Made by a program: the position numbers and the translations under genes. Positions 12,935-20,026 of a stretch of 23,570 nt of DNA are shown piece by piece. The number at the start of each line of letters is the position of its first letter. The first letter of the stretch is position 1. Origin of the DNA: a virus (taxonomy: Duplodnaviria > Heunggongvirae > Uroviricota > Caudoviricetes); the IMG/VR virus record IMGVR_UViG_2563366944_000005. The stretch is one strand, 5' to 3'. The notes under the pieces were generated by a model that was not told the origin of the DNA, made no database searches, and was given only the letters and a program-made list of their open reading frames with translations.

Positions 12935-13222
12935 TCAGAGAATGCGTTTGACCGCCTCGCTATATACTTCCGAGCGTTCTCTTTTCCCAACAGAAATCAC
13001 GAAAACGACAACTTTCTCGTCTATAACCTGGTATACAAGGCGATAGCCTGAAGACCGGAGCTTAATCTTGTAACAATCAGGCATACCACGGAGCTTGTTT
13101 GCTTCAATCCGGGGTGACTCAAGTACTTCAACCAGCTTCTTTTTCAACTGTTCACGTACCGTCGAGCCCAGCTTTCGCCATTCCTTTAGTGCCCGCTCGT
13201 CAAAATCCAGAAAATACGCCAT
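12935..13222 (-). CDS. relE: RelE mRNA interferase toxin (95 aa)
   Basis: Track ORF MAYFLDFDERALKEWRKLGSTVREQLKKKLVEVLESPRIEANKLRGMPDCYKIKLRSSGYRLVYQVIDEKVVVFVISVGKRERSEVY...; ATGA overlap with relB stop. Confidence 0.9.
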   Translation of the reverse strand: MAYFLDFDERALKEWRKLGSTVREQLKKKLVEVLESPRIEANKLRGMPDCYKIKLRSSGYRLVYQVIDEKVVVFVISVGKRERSEVYSEAVKRIL

Positions 13223-13461
13223 CAGAGTTCATCCAGCGTCACACGTACTGGCTTAGGATTACGAAGCCGTTCTTTCACTATCTCCACAAGTTCAGCATCT
13301 TCATCACTCAGGAGTGTCTGTTTGAACGGCAAGCGTTCATTGTCAGCGATATACTCGAGCATGAGACGAAGCGCTTCAGAAGGAGTTACACCCATTTTTT
13401 CAAGCGCGGCGTAAGAACGCGCTTTAAGTTCATCGTCAATACGCAGGTTAATGCTACCCAT
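13222..13461 (-). CDS. relB: RelB antitoxin (79 aa)
   Basis: Track ORF MGSINLRIDDELKARSYAALEKMGVTPSEALRLMLEYIADNERLPFKQTLLSDEDAELVEIVKERLRNPKPVRVTLDEL. Confidence 0.9.
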   Translation of the reverse strand: MGSINLRIDDELKARSYAALEKMGVTPSEALRLMLEYIADNERLPFKQTLLSDEDAELVEIVKERLRNPKPVRVTLDEL

Positions 13462-13469
13462 GTCTTACA

Positions 13470-13500
13470 CCTCTTGTAATTACAAATGTCATTACAAGTA
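13470..13500 (-). promoter_or_regulatory. relBE promoter/operator (relO-like dyad)
   Basis: cTTGTAATTACAAatgtcATTACAAg: palindromic TGTAATTACA plus a repeated TTACAA half-site immediately upstream of relB. Confidence 0.6.
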
Positions 13501-13791
13501 TCGCACTACAACATGCTTAGGGCAAGTCACGAAGGAAGTCAGAAAGTAGTCGTAAGAACGGTGATCACTGTCCGCTTTGTGCCAGGAGCAGCCATTGCTA
13601 AGTCCATCCTGTATTGTGCAGGTCAGCTCGTTTTTAAAGAGTCCGGCCATCATCTTACTGGTACAGACACCATATACTTTGTGACGGTCAGGCTACATAT
13701 GCACAACTCAACTTATTCATCTATTTTTTGCTTTAGCATGTCAGTGTTGCTTTCTCGTCGGCGGGTGAGCGGTGACCTGACCTGTCGATAA
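13486..13791 (+). CDS. ydfV: ydfV-like ORF (101 aa), doubtful coding status
   Basis: Track ORF; no SD; Cys- and Ser-rich, odd composition; overlaps the relB promoter. Confidence 0.3.
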   Translation: MSLQVSHYNMLRASHEGSQKVVVRTVITVRFVPGAAIAKSILYCAGQLVFKESGHHLTGTDTIYFVTVRLHMHNSTYSSIFCFSMSVLLSRRRVSGDLTCR

Positions 13792-13943
13792 AGGAACGTA
13801 ACACGTTTTATGCAACACCCGCATGCGGCAGAAAATTATTGCCGAACGTTTACCCCTGTCAACAAGCTTTACTTTCTGAGGCGCGCCAGCCCGCGAGGAA
13901 AACAATCTGAACATCAAACAATTAATGACACAAGAAATACGAT

Positions 13944-13970
13944 TAAAGATTTTTTTGTGCATGCCGATAG
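13944..13970 (+). promoter_or_regulatory. sigma-28 (FliA) type promoter upstream of flxA
   Basis: TAAAGATT, 11 nt, GCCGATAG compared with the recalled consensus TAAAGTTT-N11-GCCGATAA; about 24 nt before the flxA SD GGAGA. Confidence 0.6.
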
Positions 13971-13993
13971 TGCTTTTTTAAAAGGAGAAATCT

Positions 13994-14326
13994 ATGTCTG
14001 TCACAATTCAGGGAAATACCTCAACCGTTATTTCAAACAACTCCGCCCCGGAAGGAACATCAGAAATAGCCAAAATCACAAGACAAATTCAGGTGCTGAC
14101 TGAAAAGCTTGGGAAAATCTCATCGGAAGAGGGGATGACGACACAGCAGAAAAAAGAAATGGCTGCATTGGTACAGAAGCAAATTGAAAGCCTCTGGGCT
14201 CAACTGGAGCAGTTGTTAAGGCAGCAGGCAGAGAAAAAGAATGAAGACGCGACAGTTCAGCCTGATAAAAAAGAAGAGAAAAAAGACGATACAAATACCG
14301 CTGGCACCATTGATATTTACGTCTAA
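13994..14326 (+). CDS. flxA: FlxA (110 aa)
   Basis: Track ORF; ATG with AAGGAGA SD; coiled-coil, Lys/Glu/Gln-rich. Confidence 0.85.
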   Translation: MSVTIQGNTSTVISNNSAPEGTSEIAKITRQIQVLTEKLGKISSEEGMTTQQKKEMAALVQKQIESLWAQLEQLLRQQAEKKNEDATVQPDKKEEKKDDTNTAGTIDIYV

Positions 14327-14337
14327 GTGACAGCCGT

Positions 14338-14368
14338 ATTGTGGCCCTCATCGGGCCACTTTTCGCCA
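14338..14368 (+). terminator. rho-independent terminator after flxA
   Basis: GTGGCCC-tcatc-GGGCCAC followed by TTTT. Confidence 0.6.
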
Positions 14369-14674
14369 TCAGCCTTTTCTTTAAAGACATATTATCTTTG
14401 TATCATTTCTGATAGTTAACATTACAAGATATAAGTAATGGACGCACTCCCAATTAGTCTATTTAAATCGCCACGAGTTTAACTGACAACCCATGATCAA
14501 TTATGAATTGCAACTATTTCTGTAGTCACTTTTGTGGGGACAGTCCACAAAACTGCCAACTTCCGCTTCTTGCTCTTAGCGGACATTAGCATAGGCTATT
14601 TACCATAACGCCTCATTACGCGCACCGCCCAGACTGACTCAGCGCGTTTCTGGCATATCCCCGGTAAAACAAGT

Positions 14675-16130
14675 AACAAACCACCCGAAAATGAACACCA
14701 GAAACGCGACTTAAGAATCTACCCTATGAATGGATATGCACTCAACCGAATCGATCTTGGTTTCAATCTTTTTTATCGGGATCAGGCTTCTTTTTAGGTA
14801 ACTTCGGGGGCTTAACTTGCTGATGACTTTGCGTTCGGCGCGTAAGCCAGGGATGGTCAGCTTTAGGTTTAACATAGTATTTTGAGCGTAAATCAATACG
14901 GGCATTATCCACTCGTTCATGGACACTCTTTTCATCATCCAGTGGTATAGGCTCCGGGCCATCAACATACTTTTCCCAGCCCAGCGCTTTCCCGTCATAC
15001 AGAACGTTAATTTCACCGTCAAAGTTCTCGCATACAGTAACAACCGAATGCCTAAGTCGATATCCCCGGCCCTCACTGCGTACCTGAAACGCACTGCTTT
15101 TGTACTGGAAAGTGAGATTTTTAGACAGAACGCGCTTCGCCTGTAGGCTGAAGATATAACCCAGTTCCTCTTCAGAATGGTGCACATCAAGATGAGCATT
15201 ATCAGTAGTACGAGGCGACGTAGCGAACCGGTTGTTATAGGCTTCAATAAAGGTCGGCAACCATGCATTTGCTGTTTCAATATCACTGATATTCTGAAGC
15301 CGCATTTCTTTGACCAGCCTGTCCTGTAGTGTCTGATTGGCGCGCTCTACCCGCCCTTTTGCCTGCGGGCTGTTGGCATGGATTGGCTCGATGCCCAGTG
15401 TCTTTATCGCACGAGTGAACTGGGTCAGCTCACCTTCCCGCTCTGGGTTATTTACCCTGAATATACTGTGTCTATCAGAGTAGAGAGCGAGCGGTACGCC
15501 ATGATCATTAAGGTAACCCCGGAGGGTTTCCATGTAAGCCCGGGTTGTTTCAGCAGGCACAAAACGCAACGCCATCAACGCACTGGTGGCATCATCAATG
15601 AAAACGATCAGTGTACATCTGGGGCCTCGATTTTCAAACCAGTCATGAGGTGAGCCATCAATCTGGATCAGTTCACCGTAAGATGGTCGTCGCATGCGGC
15701 GTTGATATATACGGGCAATTTTACGACGGCGTTCACGCCATAACCCCTCTTCTATCATCCACTTTCTGAGAGTTTCAACGGATAAAGATAAACCGTGTAT
15801 CTCGCGCAATTTTTCGCACGCAAACGTAGGTCCAAAATCAGCGTAACGGCCTTTGAGGAGTGAAATTACTGTTGCTCTGAATTCAGTAGAAAAGGAATTA
15901 TTAGGACGCTTTCCACGTCGGTGGGAAACCAGAGCAGAAGGCCCTTCATTTCTATACCGTTGCACCAGACGTTTAACCTGCCGAATAGAAATGCCAATGC
16001 GTGCCGCAGCTTGTTCCTGAATAATCTGAAGTCGGTGGAGTTCCTTATGACTCATCGTAACAGTCTCTTTGATCATGAAAAATCCCCCAGAGAATTGTCT
16101 GGGGACATTTTAGAATGGTTCAAAGGGGAC
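14675..16130 (-). mobile_element. insertion-sequence-like element (about 1.45 kb) carrying the transposase; ends approximate
   Basis: Imperfect inverted repeats: 14679-14693 aaccacccgaaaatg versus 16106-16120 cattttagaatggtt (CATTTTnGnnTGGTT core, roughly 75% over about 20 bp). Confidence 0.45.
14763..16076 (-). CDS. DDE transposase with integrase (rve-type) catalytic core and N-terminal HTH (437 aa)
   Basis: Track ORF; ATG with GGGGG SD; candidate D/D/E residues in LIVFIDDATS, ALYSDRHSIF, GRVERANQTL; HTH IGISIRQVKRLVQRY; IS family not assigned. Confidence 0.85.
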   Translation of the reverse strand: MIKETVTMSHKELHRLQIIQEQAAARIGISIRQVKRLVQRYRNEGPSALVSHRRGKRPNNSFSTEFRATVISLLKGRYADFGPTFACEKLREIHGLSLSVETLRKWMIEEGLWRERRRKIARIYQRRMRRPSYGELIQIDGSPHDWFENRGPRCTLIVFIDDATSALMALRFVPAETTRAYMETLRGYLNDHGVPLALYSDRHSIFRVNNPEREGELTQFTRAIKTLGIEPIHANSPQAKGRVERANQTLQDRLVKEMRLQNISDIETANAWLPTFIEAYNNRFATSPRTTDNAHLDVHHSEEELGYIFSLQAKRVLSKNLTFQYKSSAFQVRSEGRGYRLRHSVVTVCENFDGEINVLYDGKALGWEKYVDGPEPIPLDDEKSVHERVDNARIDLRSKYYVKPKADHPWLTRRTQSHQQVKPPKLPKKKPDPDKKD

Positions 16131-16410
16131 ATTACAGCTTGGTGTTAACAATAGCCTGCTTCTCCGTGCCTTTCGGCACGTAAGAGGCTAACCTACATGT
16201 GTCTAGCATGAAATTGGCCTCAGATTAATGTTAAGCGTCTTGCAGGACGCGTAATGTTAACTGGGGCTTTTCTCTATCTGCCGTTGGTGTCCATGCCCGA
16301 GGCAGATAGCCTCAAGCACCCGCAGTCATTCTACTTAACTAAGATTTCCCCGCAAACCGTTTTTGTCCAGCACAGTAAATATCCAACTAAACCAATGGAG
16401 TTCGCTGTAT

Positions 16411-16590
16411 TTACCGCCAGTATTCAATGCACATGACCGCCATGAACACCCCTAAAAAAAGGGCATTTATATATCCAAATATTAATATCAAAACATCAAC
16501 TTTTTCCATATACCTTGCTGTGAAGATGATGGGCATACATGATGCGAACAACCAGAACGCAACAAACAAAAACTGCAATGCGTTTTTCAT
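16411..16590 (-). CDS. small hydrophobic protein (59 aa, two predicted transmembrane helices)
   Basis: Track ORF 16411..16629 trimmed to the ATG at 16590 preceded by AGGAGG at 5 nt; MKNALQFLFVAFWLFASCMPIIF...VLILIFGYINALFLGVFMAVMCI. Confidence 0.5.
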   Translation of the reverse strand: MKNALQFLFVAFWLFASCMPIIFTARYMEKVDVLILIFGYINALFLGVFMAVMCIEYWR

Positions 16591-16844
16591 TATTCCTCCT
16601 ACAATCAATGTGCAATTACATTTAAACACACCTCAATTTGGCCGGACATATAAATATCTAAACCAGAAAAAATCACTTACATAGCGTTACAAACTCTTTA
16701 GTCTAAAGGTTCATCGTAAAACATTCCCCATACTTATCAGTCCGTTCCGCGCCAGGTAGCTCATTGCCTTATCTGGCAACCTGTAATCAGGTTTCCGCTT
16801 TTTCAGTTGGCTGGTCGTTTAACCGACATAGTTAATCCATTAAT

Positions 16845-17132
16845 CTAGTTGCCGGATGTTGGTGGATTTTCGCGTTTTAGTTGTTCATAAAAGTGCACAG
16901 CTTTAACCAGTTCTTCTGATGTAACGGGGACTGGTGAGGCAGTGAATAAGGCCTGAATTTGATAGTTCGGCCTGTCGTTACAATCCTCTTTTTTCGGTAC
17001 ATATTTCCAGTCACCAGACCACTACTTCCCCTGAAAGTCCGTAACGCCTTTTTTTACGTAGCGATATCGCCATGCCACTGGTTTTGCTTGCCCCGCCGTT
17101 TCATGCCCTTCCTGATAATTAATCTCGCTCAT
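16845..17132 (-). pseudogene. ORF interrupted by an in-frame amber codon (36 codons, TAG, 58 codons)
   Basis: Hand translation MSEINYQEGHETAGQAKPVAWRYRYVKKGVTDFQGK*WSGDWKYVPKKEDCNDRPNYQIQALFTASPVPVTSEELVKAVHFYEQLKRENPPTSGN*; TAG at about 17022-17024. Confidence 0.3.
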
Positions 17133-17742
17133 TCATCGCCCCACTCATCACAATATGCTTCGACCGGAGTTTTTCCCGCTTCATAGTCATCACGCTAGGA
17201 TTCGACATCAGCAGCACTTCCACCGCGTAACTCACCATAGTCCATTAATAGTTCATCCCGCTCTTCAAAACTGATGTTATATTTAGCTGAACAAAAATCA
17301 GCCACTTTGTGCTTCCTCATCGTCTTTTATTTCGTGGTATGAGTAATTGCAGTAGTTAAAGAAAATTTCTTATGCTCCGTCATGAATTTCCTCAGGTGTT
17401 GCGTCATCGTCCACTTCGAATACATCCTCAAAATCTCCACCAGCTATTCCCGTTTCAATAATAATTTTGAACTTTCGCATTTCACTACCGCCCTTTCGGG
17501 CGGCCTCCTGATGTTCTGAGGGTGCAGAAATCCATCCGGTTAAGGATTAAATTTTATTTACAGAACTGAATTTAATTATTCAGATATACGTATCTGTAGC
17601 CTTACGAATCTACTCACTGGATGCCTCTTTCATAAAAATAATCCAGTGGGTTTTATCGTTTTTTCCCTGTTCGTTGACAGATAACAGGTTTTCTGTCTGT
17701 CAGTGCCAGAATCTGGCTTACCGGTATTTGCGTTTCATTCCA

Positions 17743-18099
17743 TTAAAAAATCAGAACGCCGTGCGGCCTCAACACCCGAAAGGCTTCTTTAAATCTCTGT
17801 CGCGAATCATCACGCCAGGCATCTTTATTCAGCCGTCCATATTTCTTTCCCATCCAGGCGTTATCACCAACACTCTCAAGATGCGGAGGGTCTAATACAA
17901 CCATCGAAAAAGATGCGTCTGCAAATGATAATGCACGAAAATCTGCGATAATGTCAGGGCTGATAATCAAGCGTCTCCCATTGCGTAATGTGTATCCTTC
18001 TTTTCTGATATCGCTGAATATCGCCCGTTCGTCAGACTTATCGAACCAGAACATGCGGCTGCCACAGCACATATCAAGAATGGTTGCCGGTGCACTCAC
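17743..18099 (-). CDS. DNA methyltransferase-like N-terminal fragment (118 aa), probably truncated
   Basis: Track ORF with GTG start overlapping the upstream stop (GTGA); SAM-binding-like ILDMCCGS and DPPH motif; ends right after RVLRPHGVLIF with no continuation in any frame. Confidence 0.4.
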   Translation of the reverse strand: MSAPATILDMCCGSRMFWFDKSDERAIFSDIRKEGYTLRNGRRLIISPDIIADFRALSFADASFSMVVLDPPHLESVGDNAWMGKKYGRLNKDAWRDDSRQRFKEAFRVLRPHGVLIF

Positions 18100-18518
18100 T
18101 GCGCCACGTCCTGAAAATTACCCTGATAGAAAGCCAGTATGCGCTGCATAACTTCGCTCTTCCGGCACTCGCGACAGATTATGTTTAGGCGACTGTCGTA
18201 GCGACGTATTTCTCCGTCAGGTGATGACCAGATAAGGTCCGGATCAACCACAGCAGGTTTCTTCACCTTTGCCCTCGAGAGTTTTTTGCGGGCGTTTTGC
18301 CAGTCCTTACGCGCCTGTTCAGAGGGGAATAACCCGTAGCCGGAGTTGTATACATCGCCACTGGCTACCAGCTCTCTGGCAAGAACGCTCATCAGATATC
18401 TAGTCGCACCTGTTTTAGCTTCCAGTTGCCGTAACGTCTCACGGCCGCTCTGGCGCACGAGTTCCACCACCTGCCATTTAATTTTTTCCCGCTCTTCTTG
18501 TGTAAAAACTTTTGCCAC
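18096..18518 (-). CDS. hypothetical protein (140 aa), possible winged-helix DNA-binding protein
   Basis: Track ORF; GTG start preceded by AGGGGG; lies 40 nt downstream of the O-like gene. Confidence 0.55.
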   Translation of the reverse strand: MAKVFTQEEREKIKWQVVELVRQSGRETLRQLEAKTGATRYLMSVLARELVASGDVYNSGYGLFPSEQARKDWQNARKKLSRAKVKKPAVVDPDLIWSSPDGEIRRYDSRLNIICRECRKSEVMQRILAFYQGNFQDVAQ

Positions 18519-18558
18519 AAGTCCCCCTTAAAATTACCTCATGACCTGAAATCAACAC

Positions 18559-19524
18559 TTATCCTCTGAAACCAGGCGGAATTTCTGTATCCGGTTCAGA
18601 AATATGATTAACACAACGCTGTACAGGTGAACGTCCCAGGCGGATGACCAGTTCGTCCCATTTTTCGCGGAGCTTTGACGGGCTCATGATGTTTTTTACC
18701 CAGAATGGATCTCGCTGAACCCGACCAAACATTTCGCAAATTTGTCTGTGGCTTCTGCCATCCAGCATCCGCATTGTGCGCACGTCATTGGCCCAGGCAG
18801 TCCAGTTAGGCTCTTTTGGTCGCATGATCTCGCCATCATCACTGGCTGCCTGTTCGTAGAGACCCACGATCCGCCCCCAGATCCACTGCGCACACGCCAA
18901 ATCCTCCCTGCTACCCCACTGGCGTTTTTTCGCACTAAACACAACCGCGTCGGAGTTCCGGGTTAAAAAATCCTGTTCAGTCGTCTGCGGGTCCGGTTGC
19001 GAAGCTTCCGGACGAAAAGTGTTTTTATTCTCTGTAGTAATCTCTGTTGTATTCTCTGTAAGATCATCAGGCCATTTTGACCCGATGACATTGGGTCGTT
19101 TTGAACCAATGGAGCGTTTCATTTTGACCTCTTCCATCGTGTCATTTTGACCTGATGGAGCGGCGCATTTTGAACCGATGGATTCGCTCAATTTGCCACC
19201 ATCTAAAAGCTCGCTCCCATAGTTGATCGTGTAGAAATTGGTCATATCGCGCTTTGATTTATTGAGCTTTTCACAACGCAAAAGCCCCAGCGTTTTCAGA
19301 CTTGCAAACGCGCGCTTTAACGTTGACTCTGACCAGAATGGGAACTGTTCCAGCCATTGTTCCGTTGTGTTATAAATCCAGCGAACACCATCACATTCCA
19401 TGCCGGAGTTGGTATCTCTCAACCAGTAGTGCAGTTGTTGCAAAACAATGGCTTCGTTTAAGCCAATTTTCATTGCCAGCTGCGTGTTTATAACCAGTGG
19501 GCGTTCAGCAAAAAGAAGGCTCAT
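18559..19524 (-). CDS. replication initiator / replisome organizer (O-like); about 321 aa from the first ATG
   Basis: Track ORF 18559..19578 begins at TTG; N-terminal DNA-binding-like region; central repeated IGSK motifs encoded by iterons. Confidence 0.75.
   Translation of the reverse strand: MSLLFAERPLVINTQLAMKIGLNEAIVLQQLHYWLRDTNSGMECDGVRWIYNTTEQWLEQFPFWSESTLKRAFASLKTLGLLRCEKLNKSKRDMTNFYTINYGSELLDGGKLSESIGSKCAAPSGQNDTMEEVKMKRSIGSKRPNVIGSKWPDDLTENTTEITTENKNTFRPEASQPDPQTTEQDFLTRNSDAVVFSAKKRQWGSREDLACAQWIWGRIVGLYEQAASDDGEIMRPKEPNWTAWANDVRTMRMLDGRSHRQICEMFGRVQRDPFWVKNIMSPSKLREKWDELVIRLGRSPVQRCVNHISEPDTEIPPGFRG
19070..19195. repeat. origin-like iteron array inside the O-like gene (5 direct repeats at about 23-24 bp spacing)
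   Basis: cATTTTGAcCCGATGa / gTTTTGAaCCAATGGA / cATTTTGAcCtcttcc / cATTTTGAcCTGATGGA / cATTTTGAaCCGATGGA starting near 19073, 19097, 19120, 19143, 19167; AT-rich TCTCTGT-repeat stretch at 19030-19060. Confidence 0.65.
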
Positions 19525-20026
19525 AATTCCATCCAGCTTTTTGTTGGTATTGCTGTCGATACGCAAGTTTGAAAGCAATTGCTTTTTCTATAAGTTCGTC
19601 AGTTTCACGATCCACTACGGCAGGATCAGCAAAAAGCAGTCCGGACTCCACCACATCGCCATATTCTTTGTTTAACCCGGCGATCATGCACGTGATGCTT
19701 TTTCCGTCAGTAATTTCACGATACAACCTGAAATCATTAATCCGGATAGCCTCCATAATTGCAGGCACTAGCGCCGTGAACTTTTCACGCTTATCCCTGG
19801 TGTCGATAGCCTTCCAGCGTTCAAATATCTTCACTCGATTAACGCCAAGCGCTCGCTGATCAATCGCGCCACCTTCATATGTGACACGCTGAACATCGAT
19901 GTTCGGGCGCTCTTTCAAAGCCCAGAATGCTTCAGTGATTAATATCGTCGCCTGCTCCTGTGTCATTCCTGGTCGACATATCCAGGCATCCAGAGCCTCA
20001 CGAGCCTGTTCAGGAGTGATTTTCAT
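19505..20026 (-). CDS. hypothetical regulatory protein in the cII position (173 aa); possibly YdaT-family
   Basis: Track ORF; ATG start; overlaps dicC 3' end by 17 nt and the O-like gene start. Confidence 0.6.
   Translation of the reverse strand: MKITPEQAREALDAWICRPGMTQEQATILITEAFWALKERPNIDVQRVTYEGGAIDQRALGVNRVKIFERWKAIDTRDKREKFTALVPAIMEAIRINDFRLYREITDGKSITCMIAGLNKEYGDVVESGLLFADPAVVDRETDELIEKAIAFKLAYRQQYQQKAGWNYEPSFC

Follow-up and report, generated by a model that had tools for sequence, protein, structure and literature searches.

Phage morons are self-contained promoter-gene-terminator units that lie between phage genes and are expressed from a repressed prophage. The sigma factor FliA (sigma-28) stays inactive, held by its anti-sigma factor FlgM, until the hook-basal body is finished and FlgM is exported; flxA, a FliA-dependent gene of the Qin prophage in Escherichia coli K-12, should therefore come on together with the flagellin, motor, and chemotaxis genes. 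The original description of flxA is reportedly that of Ide and Kutsukake in 1997 (Gene 199:19), where it was discovered as FliA dependent, and the title of that paper is said to call the gene FliA dependent yet dispensable for motility development.

Genome-scale studies place flxA firmly in the FliA regulon. Fitzgerald et al. (2014; PMC4183435) assigned to flxA a FliA ChIP-seq peak with the motif TAAAGATTTTTTTGTGCATGCCGATAGT and a FAT score of 16, reported that normalized RNA-seq expression dropped from 280 in motile MG1655 to 2 when fliA was deleted, a significant difference (both in their Table 2), and counted flxA among the "well-characterized FliA-dependent promoters." Array data from Zhao et al. 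(2007; PMC1935009, Table 2) show flxA changing −28.4-fold when fliA is deleted and +8.2-fold 5 min after FliA is induced. In genomic SELEX with RpoF holoenzyme, a peak fell in the spacer between ydfV and flxA (Shimada et al. 2017; PMC5493296). For ykfB of the CP4-6 prophage, the first two sources give a FAT score of 24 with expression of 118 versus 42 (PMC4183435, Table 2) and a change of −3.7-fold (PMC1935009, Table 2). FliA control of flxA is thus already published, textbook-level knowledge, and the gene serves as a standard positive control in FliA regulon studies.

Here we analyze flxA in a 23.6-kb stretch of prophage DNA (the window, meaning the whole stretch at full length). Its 28-mer upstream of flxA is identical to the K-12 FliA ChIP-seq motif (PMC4183435). 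The initial annotation of the window, made from the sequence alone, had tied flxA to the host flagellar regulon; with K-12 sharing the same sequence, the published binding and dependence bear this out. The comparison it proposed, flxA expression in a fliA null versus the wild type, exists in print as the RNA-seq and array values given above, and in neither data set is expression unchanged by the deletion. Its interpretation that flxA is under sigma-28 control through this promoter is supported.

Prophage setting of flxA

The window represents a lambdoid prophage of E. coli that resembles Qin. Over its full length it is 99.5% identical to a region of isolate AF3, which many other strains carry as well. 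Positions 13700-14600 are 100% identical to K-12 MG1655. The 4.8 kb at 14947-19747 are absent from the Qin prophage of MG1655 (L001); they comprise most of the insertion sequence (IS) that flanks the flxA region, along with genes for a SAM methyltransferase, a DUF977 protein, and replication protein O and ydaT-like genes. Compared with its relative in K-12, the window is thus the less decayed of the two, and it retains the terminase-large-subunit and portal genes at its left end. We set the ends of the IS from homology limits, namely, position 14646, where the match to an Edwardsiella tarda plasmid (L097) stops, and position 16221, where the match to an Enterobacter roggenkampii plasmid (L096) stops (Table 1). 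The K-12 "gene" ydfW (49 aa; 14763-14912) is merely the C-terminal end of the transposase ORF of this element, and the AF3 annotation of the region consists of ydfW and a transposase pseudogene.

Every annotated phage gene on both sides of flxA lies on the minus strand: the terminase, lysis, Q-antiterminator, and ydfU genes on one side, and the genes for the methyltransferase and replication protein O, together with dicC, on the other. With flxA on the plus strand, the initial annotation was right that it points against the surrounding phage genes. The opposition does not extend to ydfV, the ORF upstream, which is oriented like flxA and has no Pfam or PHROG match; moreover, the nearest neighbors are not of phage type, being relB-relE-hokD on one side and the ISNCY element on the other. 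Neither neighbor, the toxin-antitoxin module (relBE, hokD) or the insertion sequence, is a phage structural or regulatory gene. Neither DicA, the prophage repressor, nor the Q antiterminator should affect flxA, since both drive the opposite strand.

The spacer between ydfV and flxA also holds a near-consensus sigma-70-like promoter on the minus strand at 13835-13862 (TTGACA-16 nt-AATAAT; 11 of 12 matches), directed antisense across ydfV toward relB-relE, with the relB start about 370 nt downstream. Its TTGACA half, but not its −10 half, is kept in an Enterobacter copy of flxA (L004).

Table 1. Features of the flxA region and of related loci; positions are those of the window unless another locus is named
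Feature	Position or locus	Strand	Details
relE-relB-ydfV-flxA accessory block	12876-14646		Moves as a unit; 99.0% identical on Edwardsiella tarda plasmid
ydfV	13486-13791	+	ORF upstream of flxA
Minimal conserved cassette, promoter to just past stop	13934-14337	+	blastn sharing with L089 and L004
Sigma-28 (FliA) -35 element	13944-13951	+	TAAAGATT; read from sequence, same as FliA ChIP-seq motif for flxA
Spacer	13952-13962	+	tttttgtgcat, 11 nt; read from sequence
Sigma-28 -10 element	13963-13970	+	GCCGATAG; read from sequence
Short leader	13971-13993	+	Shine-Dalgarno AGGAG at 13983-13987; read from sequence
flxA coding sequence	13994-14326	+	110 aa, FlxA-like family; PF14282 match, RefSeq annotation flxA
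Terminator-like hairpin and U-run	14341-14363	+	GUGGCCC-ucauc-GGGCCAC (14341-14359), UUUU (14360-14363); -14.5 kcal/mol, z -4.65
ISNCY (IS1202/ISEsa1-like) insertion sequence	14647-16221	-	Flanks relE-relB-ydfV-flxA block
ISNCY transposase ORF	14763-16076	-	437 aa, uninterrupted in window
Mobile copy L004	Enterobacter, beside integrase next to icd		-35 TAAAGATA, spacer 11, -10 GCCGATAG
Mobile copy L008	Short metagenome contig, transposase fragment adjoining		-35 TAAAGTCT, spacer 11, -10 GCCGATAC
Mobile copy L089	Downstream of TraI relaxase gene, plasmid- or ICE-like		-35 TTAAGTTT, spacer 12, -10 ACCGATAT
Mobile copy L092	Short contig		-35 TAAAGATT, spacer 11, -10 GACGATAA
Mobile copy L095	IncF-type Citrobacter plasmids		-35 TAAAGTAT, spacer 12, -10 GCCGATAC
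E. coli chromosomal FlxA-like gene	L093, 2181-2522 (strain ECA64); also L094		

A single sigma-28 promoter in the window

The flxA promoter differs from the consensus TAAAGTTT-N11-GCCGATAA by one mismatch in each element and has the canonical 11-nt spacer. When both strands of the window were scanned, this was the sole match, and at ≤2 mismatches the chance expectation is 0.01 (1 of 100 shuffled windows contained a match), so that the near-consensus FliA promoter first noted upstream of flxA stands. Between the −10 element and the flxA ATG at 13994 lie 23 nt, with AGGAG placed 6 nt ahead of the start codon. Transcription would start a few nucleotides 3′ of position 13970. RNA polymerase carrying sigma-28 reads this class-3-type promoter, and the short leader supplies a strong ribosome-binding site.

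We also considered whether the motif might be a chance match, with flxA being expressed through read-through out of ydfV or driven by a sigma-70 promoter. Under a looser limit of ≤3 mismatches the expectation in the window is 0.31, and 28% of shuffled windows had a match; furthermore, ydfV lies upstream on the same strand, with no terminator called between it and flxA by a consensus scan. However, the observed promoter has only two mismatches, for which the lower expectation of 0.01 applies, the consensus scan calls no sigma-70-like site on the plus strand upstream of flxA, and the motif is conserved family-wide (see below). FliA was cross-linked at the site, and flxA RNA fell from 280 to 2 without FliA (PMC4183435). 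A loss this close to complete in the fliA mutant means that flxA transcription does not originate in ydfV and leaves no room for meaningful read-through from that ORF. We therefore regard a chance motif as extremely improbable.

The 3′ end of the flxA unit

A hairpin with a GC-rich, 7-bp stem begins 15 nt past the flxA stop codon and is followed by only 4 U. A consensus scan for terminators, set to require 5 or more T in 8, passed over it on account of this short U-run. In the L008 homologue, which is 65% identical, the equivalent hairpin is followed by UUUUAUU. The claim that flxA ends at its own terminator holds insofar as the hairpin is real, as judged from its folding energy and z score (Table 1), but the structure falls beyond 13944-14326, the span originally assigned to the unit, and its U-run of 4 leaves the scanner silent. 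Transcription likely ends at this hairpin, which would make the flxA mRNA monocistronic and roughly 0.4 kb long. We rejected the hairpin as a bidirectional terminator: the reverse strand forms the stem but has no U-run behind it.

The FlxA protein

FlxA matches the Pfam family PF14282, "FlxA-like protein," with 53.8 bits (cutoff, 26.3) over residues 7-101. Its AlphaFold2 model (pLDDT, 67) is a helical hairpin formed by residues 24-42 and 50-87, with disordered residues at both ends (1-21 and 88-110); pLDDT is <50 for residues 1-21. The first 25 residues are rich in Ser, Thr, Asn, and Gly (64% S/T/N/G/Q/A), and the protein has no signal peptide. A Foldseek search of the model against the PDB gave no match at E ≤ 0.001, and a profile search of PDB sequences returned only designed coiled coils and other noise; FlxA had no match in NCBIfam and matched only a family of unknown function in PHROGs. 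An exhaustive HMMER search of 1.8 billion representatives yielded only 48 relatives, which have in common a helical core rich in Gln and the ending I-D-I-Y-V/I at the C terminus. Stretches resembling FlxA residues 8-50 recur in two giant proteins, at 17 separate places in P0131 (3361 aa) and at 7 in P0147 (2729 aa); the N-terminal FlxA motif is therefore also found as a tandem repeat in very large proteins.

Mobile copies of flxA and the block around it

The Qin-type flxA module occurs in about 1200 of 5426 complete E. coli genomes and is ≥99% identical in 1199 of 1204 records. Since the module is nearly invariant within E. coli, assessing conservation of its promoter required other genera. 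The mobile clade of FlxA proteins shows 45 to 86% identity to Qin FlxA, and all five mobile copies listed in Table 1 have a sigma-28 promoter that ends 23 to 26 nt before the ATG, although their flanks differ. Most mobile-clade copies place the ATG 23 to 24 nt after the −10 element, compared with mostly 26 to 31 nt in the chromosomal clade described below. The −10 variants ACCGATA and GACGATA are both present in listed E. coli FliA promoters, ACCGATA being that of ycgR (PMC4183435).

Comparison of these copies defines a small conserved unit. L089 shares only 13934-14276 with the window (72% identity by blastn) and L004 only 13856-14337 (88%), and in a three-way DNA alignment, similarity to L008 starts at the −35 element; the conserved unit is therefore the promoter plus the gene. 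The GC content of this cassette is 42.6%, versus 48 to 50% for the flanking phage genes.

On a larger scale, the relE-relB-ydfV-flxA block recurs outside prophages. A 6.5-kb Edwardsiella tarda plasmid (L097; 118-1888) carries window positions 12876-14646 at 99.0% identity, and the Enterobacter roggenkampii IncFII plasmid pYK16-mcr-10 (L096; 1867-5255) carries 12859-16221, including the IS, at 98.4%. Block identities of 98 to 99% on plasmids of other genera imply recent exchange between prophage and plasmid. One of these carriers, pYK16-mcr-10, is an mcr-10 colistin-resistance plasmid. Among 72,556 plasmids, 32 encode FlxA, their hosts being Enterobacter, Citrobacter, Salmonella, Edwardsiella, and E. 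coli; the protein is encoded in only 1 of 50,697 phage records, that of the intact, 48.7-kb phage PhiR42_1, whose layout is the same as that of the window. The promoter-gene cassette would be older than the relE-relB-ydfV-flxA block around it, and flxA would have entered the prophage within this block, bordered by the toxin-antitoxin module and the IS element.

FlxA-like genes at a conserved chromosomal locus

A scan of one genome per species identified 80 chromosomal FlxA-like loci in about 80 species of Enterobacter, Citrobacter, Kluyvera, Leclercia, Lelliottia, Buttiauxella, Atlantibacter, Scandinavium, Cedecea, Kosakonia, Pantoea, and other genera. Klebsiella and Raoultella are reported to lack fliA (bioRxiv preprint 10.1101/188474). 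Loci were picked by a protein pattern, independently of any promoter; the pattern for distant loci came from a narrower alignment, as the full 19-sequence alignment has no sufficiently conserved stretch. Proteins of this chromosomal clade are 25 to 36% identical to Qin FlxA over their full length in the family alignment. Ten loci that we inspected have a conserved neighborhood, in the order gltX, FlxA-like gene, convergent LysR regulator, transporter, and ligA, with yfeC/D-like genes on the gltX side (and, in E. coli, tRNA genes as well). The regulator and the transporter are named yfeR and yfeH in E. coli, the latter annotated as a bile-acid:sodium symporter, and genes of this pair adjoin the FlxA-like gene in 9 of the 10 loci.

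A sigma-28 promoter lies within 150 nt upstream of the gene at 71 of 83 loci, a set made up of the window, two mobile copies, and the chromosomal loci, mostly one per species. A locus was scored as positive when its upstream 150 nt contained a −10 element with ≤1 mismatch and a −35 element with ≤3 mismatches; the background of this criterion in the same loci is 48 in 844,054 positions, or 0.0085 per 150-nt window. Most of the 12 loci that fail still have a perfect GCCGATAA and a TCAAG −35 element. Within 150 nt upstream of three members of the chromosomal clade (L078, L082, and L086) we found no convincing sigma-28 motif, which may reflect wrong start-codon calls.

In a profile of 70 distinct promoters anchored at the −10 element, GCCGATA shows no variation and positions −19 to −15 strongly conserve T-C-A-A-G; spacers are 11 nt (occasionally 10 or 12), and the spacer and flank sequences carry almost no information. 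The −10 element was chosen by best match, so that its conservation in the profile is overstated; because such anchoring inflates the signal, the background rate is the proper control. The −35 core is TAAAG in the mobile clade and TCAAG in the chromosomal clade. Taken with the background rate, these alignments indicate that the flxA promoter is under purifying selection across the FlxA family. A short T-rich stretch at +13 to +16 after the first −10 base (about 13976-13979) is moderately conserved across the family, at 0.6 to 1.0 bit per position; it sits near the expected transcription start, and the bases around it are unconserved.

E. coli itself can carry a chromosomal FlxA-like gene in addition to Qin flxA: 1307 of 5426 complete genomes have a second FlxA-like gene between tRNA-Lys and yfeR. 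Its promoter is TCAAGTTC-N11-GCCGATAT, and its 3′ end overlaps the convergent yfeR gene by about 10 nt. In the remaining matching E. coli genomes only 38 nt beside tRNA-Lys match, so the FlxA-like gene is missing or replaced there.

Origin of the flxA unit

We are highly confident that 13944-14363 is a single-gene, FliA-driven unit that the prophage captured ready-made, as a promoter-bearing mobile cassette, rather than a phage invention. FlxA-like genes would be old chromosomal members of the sigma-28 regulon in the Enterobacterales, residing between gltX/tRNA-Lys and yfeR; a diverged mobile branch would have retained the sigma-28 promoter at each landing site, whether prophage, plasmid, integrase island, or relaxase-adjacent locus. 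The breadth and synteny of the chromosomal clade suggest that transfer ran from chromosome to mobile element. From sequence comparison, we conclude that the sigma-28 promoter is an ancestral trait of the FlxA family, a point that is new relative to published work on flxA. In describing a prophage gene tied to the flagellar regulon, the initial annotation was correct about FliA control, but the tie was apparently not made in the prophage: the promoter would be ancestral to the family and the cassette imported with it.

A different history, in which the promoter arose de novo in the prophage and a phage gene thereby senses the motile state of its host, has some points in common with these data: flxA does sit in a prophage, the intact phage PhiR42_1 has a matching layout, and the TAAAG of the mobile clade is nearer the consensus than the chromosomal TCAAG. 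We nonetheless think such an origin very unlikely, given that an equal promoter architecture is found at a conserved nonphage locus in about 80 species, that the promoter also precedes mobile copies outside phages, with the block itself 98 to 99% conserved on plasmids, and that PhiR42_1 is alone among the 50,697 phage records in encoding FlxA. Because the block occurs on plasmids beside an IS, flxA is better described as a captured, moron-like cassette than as a phage gene that gained a host promoter.

Is FlxA exported or cytoplasmic?

For the role of FlxA itself we weighed two readings. The first, which we put forward tentatively and give well under an even chance, is that FlxA-like proteins are an overlooked late substrate of flagellar type III export, of which the Qin branch, found on prophage and plasmid, would be a horizontally traded version. 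FlxA would then be made only when FliA is freed and be secreted through the flagellum; this would explain the sigma-28 promoter in every copy, the disordered N terminus, and the occurrence of extracellular FlxA with flagellar proteins. In sequence terms FlxA has the class 3 promoter and the disordered N terminus without a Sec signal expected of an export substrate, features that are necessary but far from sufficient.

FlgK, FliD, FliC, FlgL, and FlgM are known flagellar export substrates. In an E. coli co-culture exoproteome, FlxA rises with all five; the same list also includes the cytoplasmic proteins CheY and isocitrate lyase (PMC6391000, Table 1). In a study at 42°C (PMC6551532), flagellar secretion fails and class 3 transcription collapses, and FlxA protein and mRNA change in opposite directions, the direction of each being deduced from the fall in class 3 transcription reported there. 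Together, the exoproteome and 42°C data hint at FlxA export, a reading that differs from those authors' own. Our literature searches returned no published demonstration of FlxA secretion.

The second reading, to which we give a little under an even chance, is that FlxA stays in the cytoplasm, where this small helical hairpin would serve as an adaptor or regulator in a late flagellar process or one linked to motility. A helical-hairpin core such as that predicted by AlphaFold2 is seen in many small binding proteins, no signal peptide is present, the gene is said in the 1997 title to be dispensable for motility development, and CheY and isocitrate lyase share the sole exoproteome list that contains FlxA. 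A cytoplasmic role fits less well with the rise of FlxA alongside FlgK, FliD, FliC, FlgL, and FlgM, with the opposite behavior of its protein and mRNA at 42°C, where flagellar secretion fails, and with an N terminus that is predicted to be disordered over residues 1-21 and is Ser/Thr/Asn/Gly rich over its first 25 residues.

The sigma-28 promoter has been kept throughout a whole bacterial order, and mobile elements of at least four kinds carry it too, which argues that expression during late flagellar assembly is essential to the role of FlxA. FlxA is thus a good candidate for a factor that is linked to the flagellum, may be secreted, and has been overlooked. The gene also illustrates cleanly how cargo on mobile DNA can plug into an alternative-sigma regulon of the host with no phage regulator involved. 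Beyond what has been published, the analysis contributes the family-wide, ancestral sigma-28 promoter, the probable capture of the Qin copy as a mobile cassette, and a testable idea about secretion.

Comparison with known systems

The closest described system is K-12 Qin flxAp, which is the same element, the two sequences being identical throughout 13700-14600. The prophage of the window is less decayed than K-12 Qin, keeping the ISNCY transposase ORF and the methyltransferase, replication protein O, terminase, and portal genes. The flxA promoter also resembles those of the class 3 genes fliC, tar, flgMN, motA, and flgKL in its TAAAG/GCCGATA elements, 11-nt spacing, and strong FliA dependence, and its −35 half, TAAAGATT, is identical to that of flgMN (PMC4183435, Table 2). 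Unlike these promoters, it drives a gene without a known role in assembly or motility, on mobile DNA.

Another FliA-linked prophage gene is ykfB in CP4-6, which is likewise of unknown function, FliA bound, and FliA dependent; its control by FliA means that flagellar-regulon cargo on E. coli prophages is not unique to Qin. It differs from flxA in that its promoter is intragenic (inside yafY), its FliA dependence is weaker, and its product is unrelated to FlxA. The FlxA-like gene of the yfeR locus belongs to the same Pfam family as flxA and shares with it the helical core, the I-D-I-Y-V/I ending, and the position of the sigma-28 promoter. The E. coli product of that locus is 45% identical to Qin FlxA over 74 aa, and the −35 core of its gene is TCAAG rather than TAAAG. 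Whereas the yfeR-locus gene has a fixed chromosomal position and runs into the 3′ end of yfeR, flxA probably ends at a free-standing hairpin.

Finally, flxA is moron-like in having its own promoter and a terminator-like hairpin, in its orientation against the phage operons, in its lower GC content, and in its independence from phage circuits. It differs from a phage moron in that its promoter serves an alternative sigma factor and the unit lies inside a larger block bordered by toxin-antitoxin genes and an IS; since the relE-relB-ydfV-flxA block is also found on plasmids, flxA is best regarded as general mobile cargo rather than as phage-specific.
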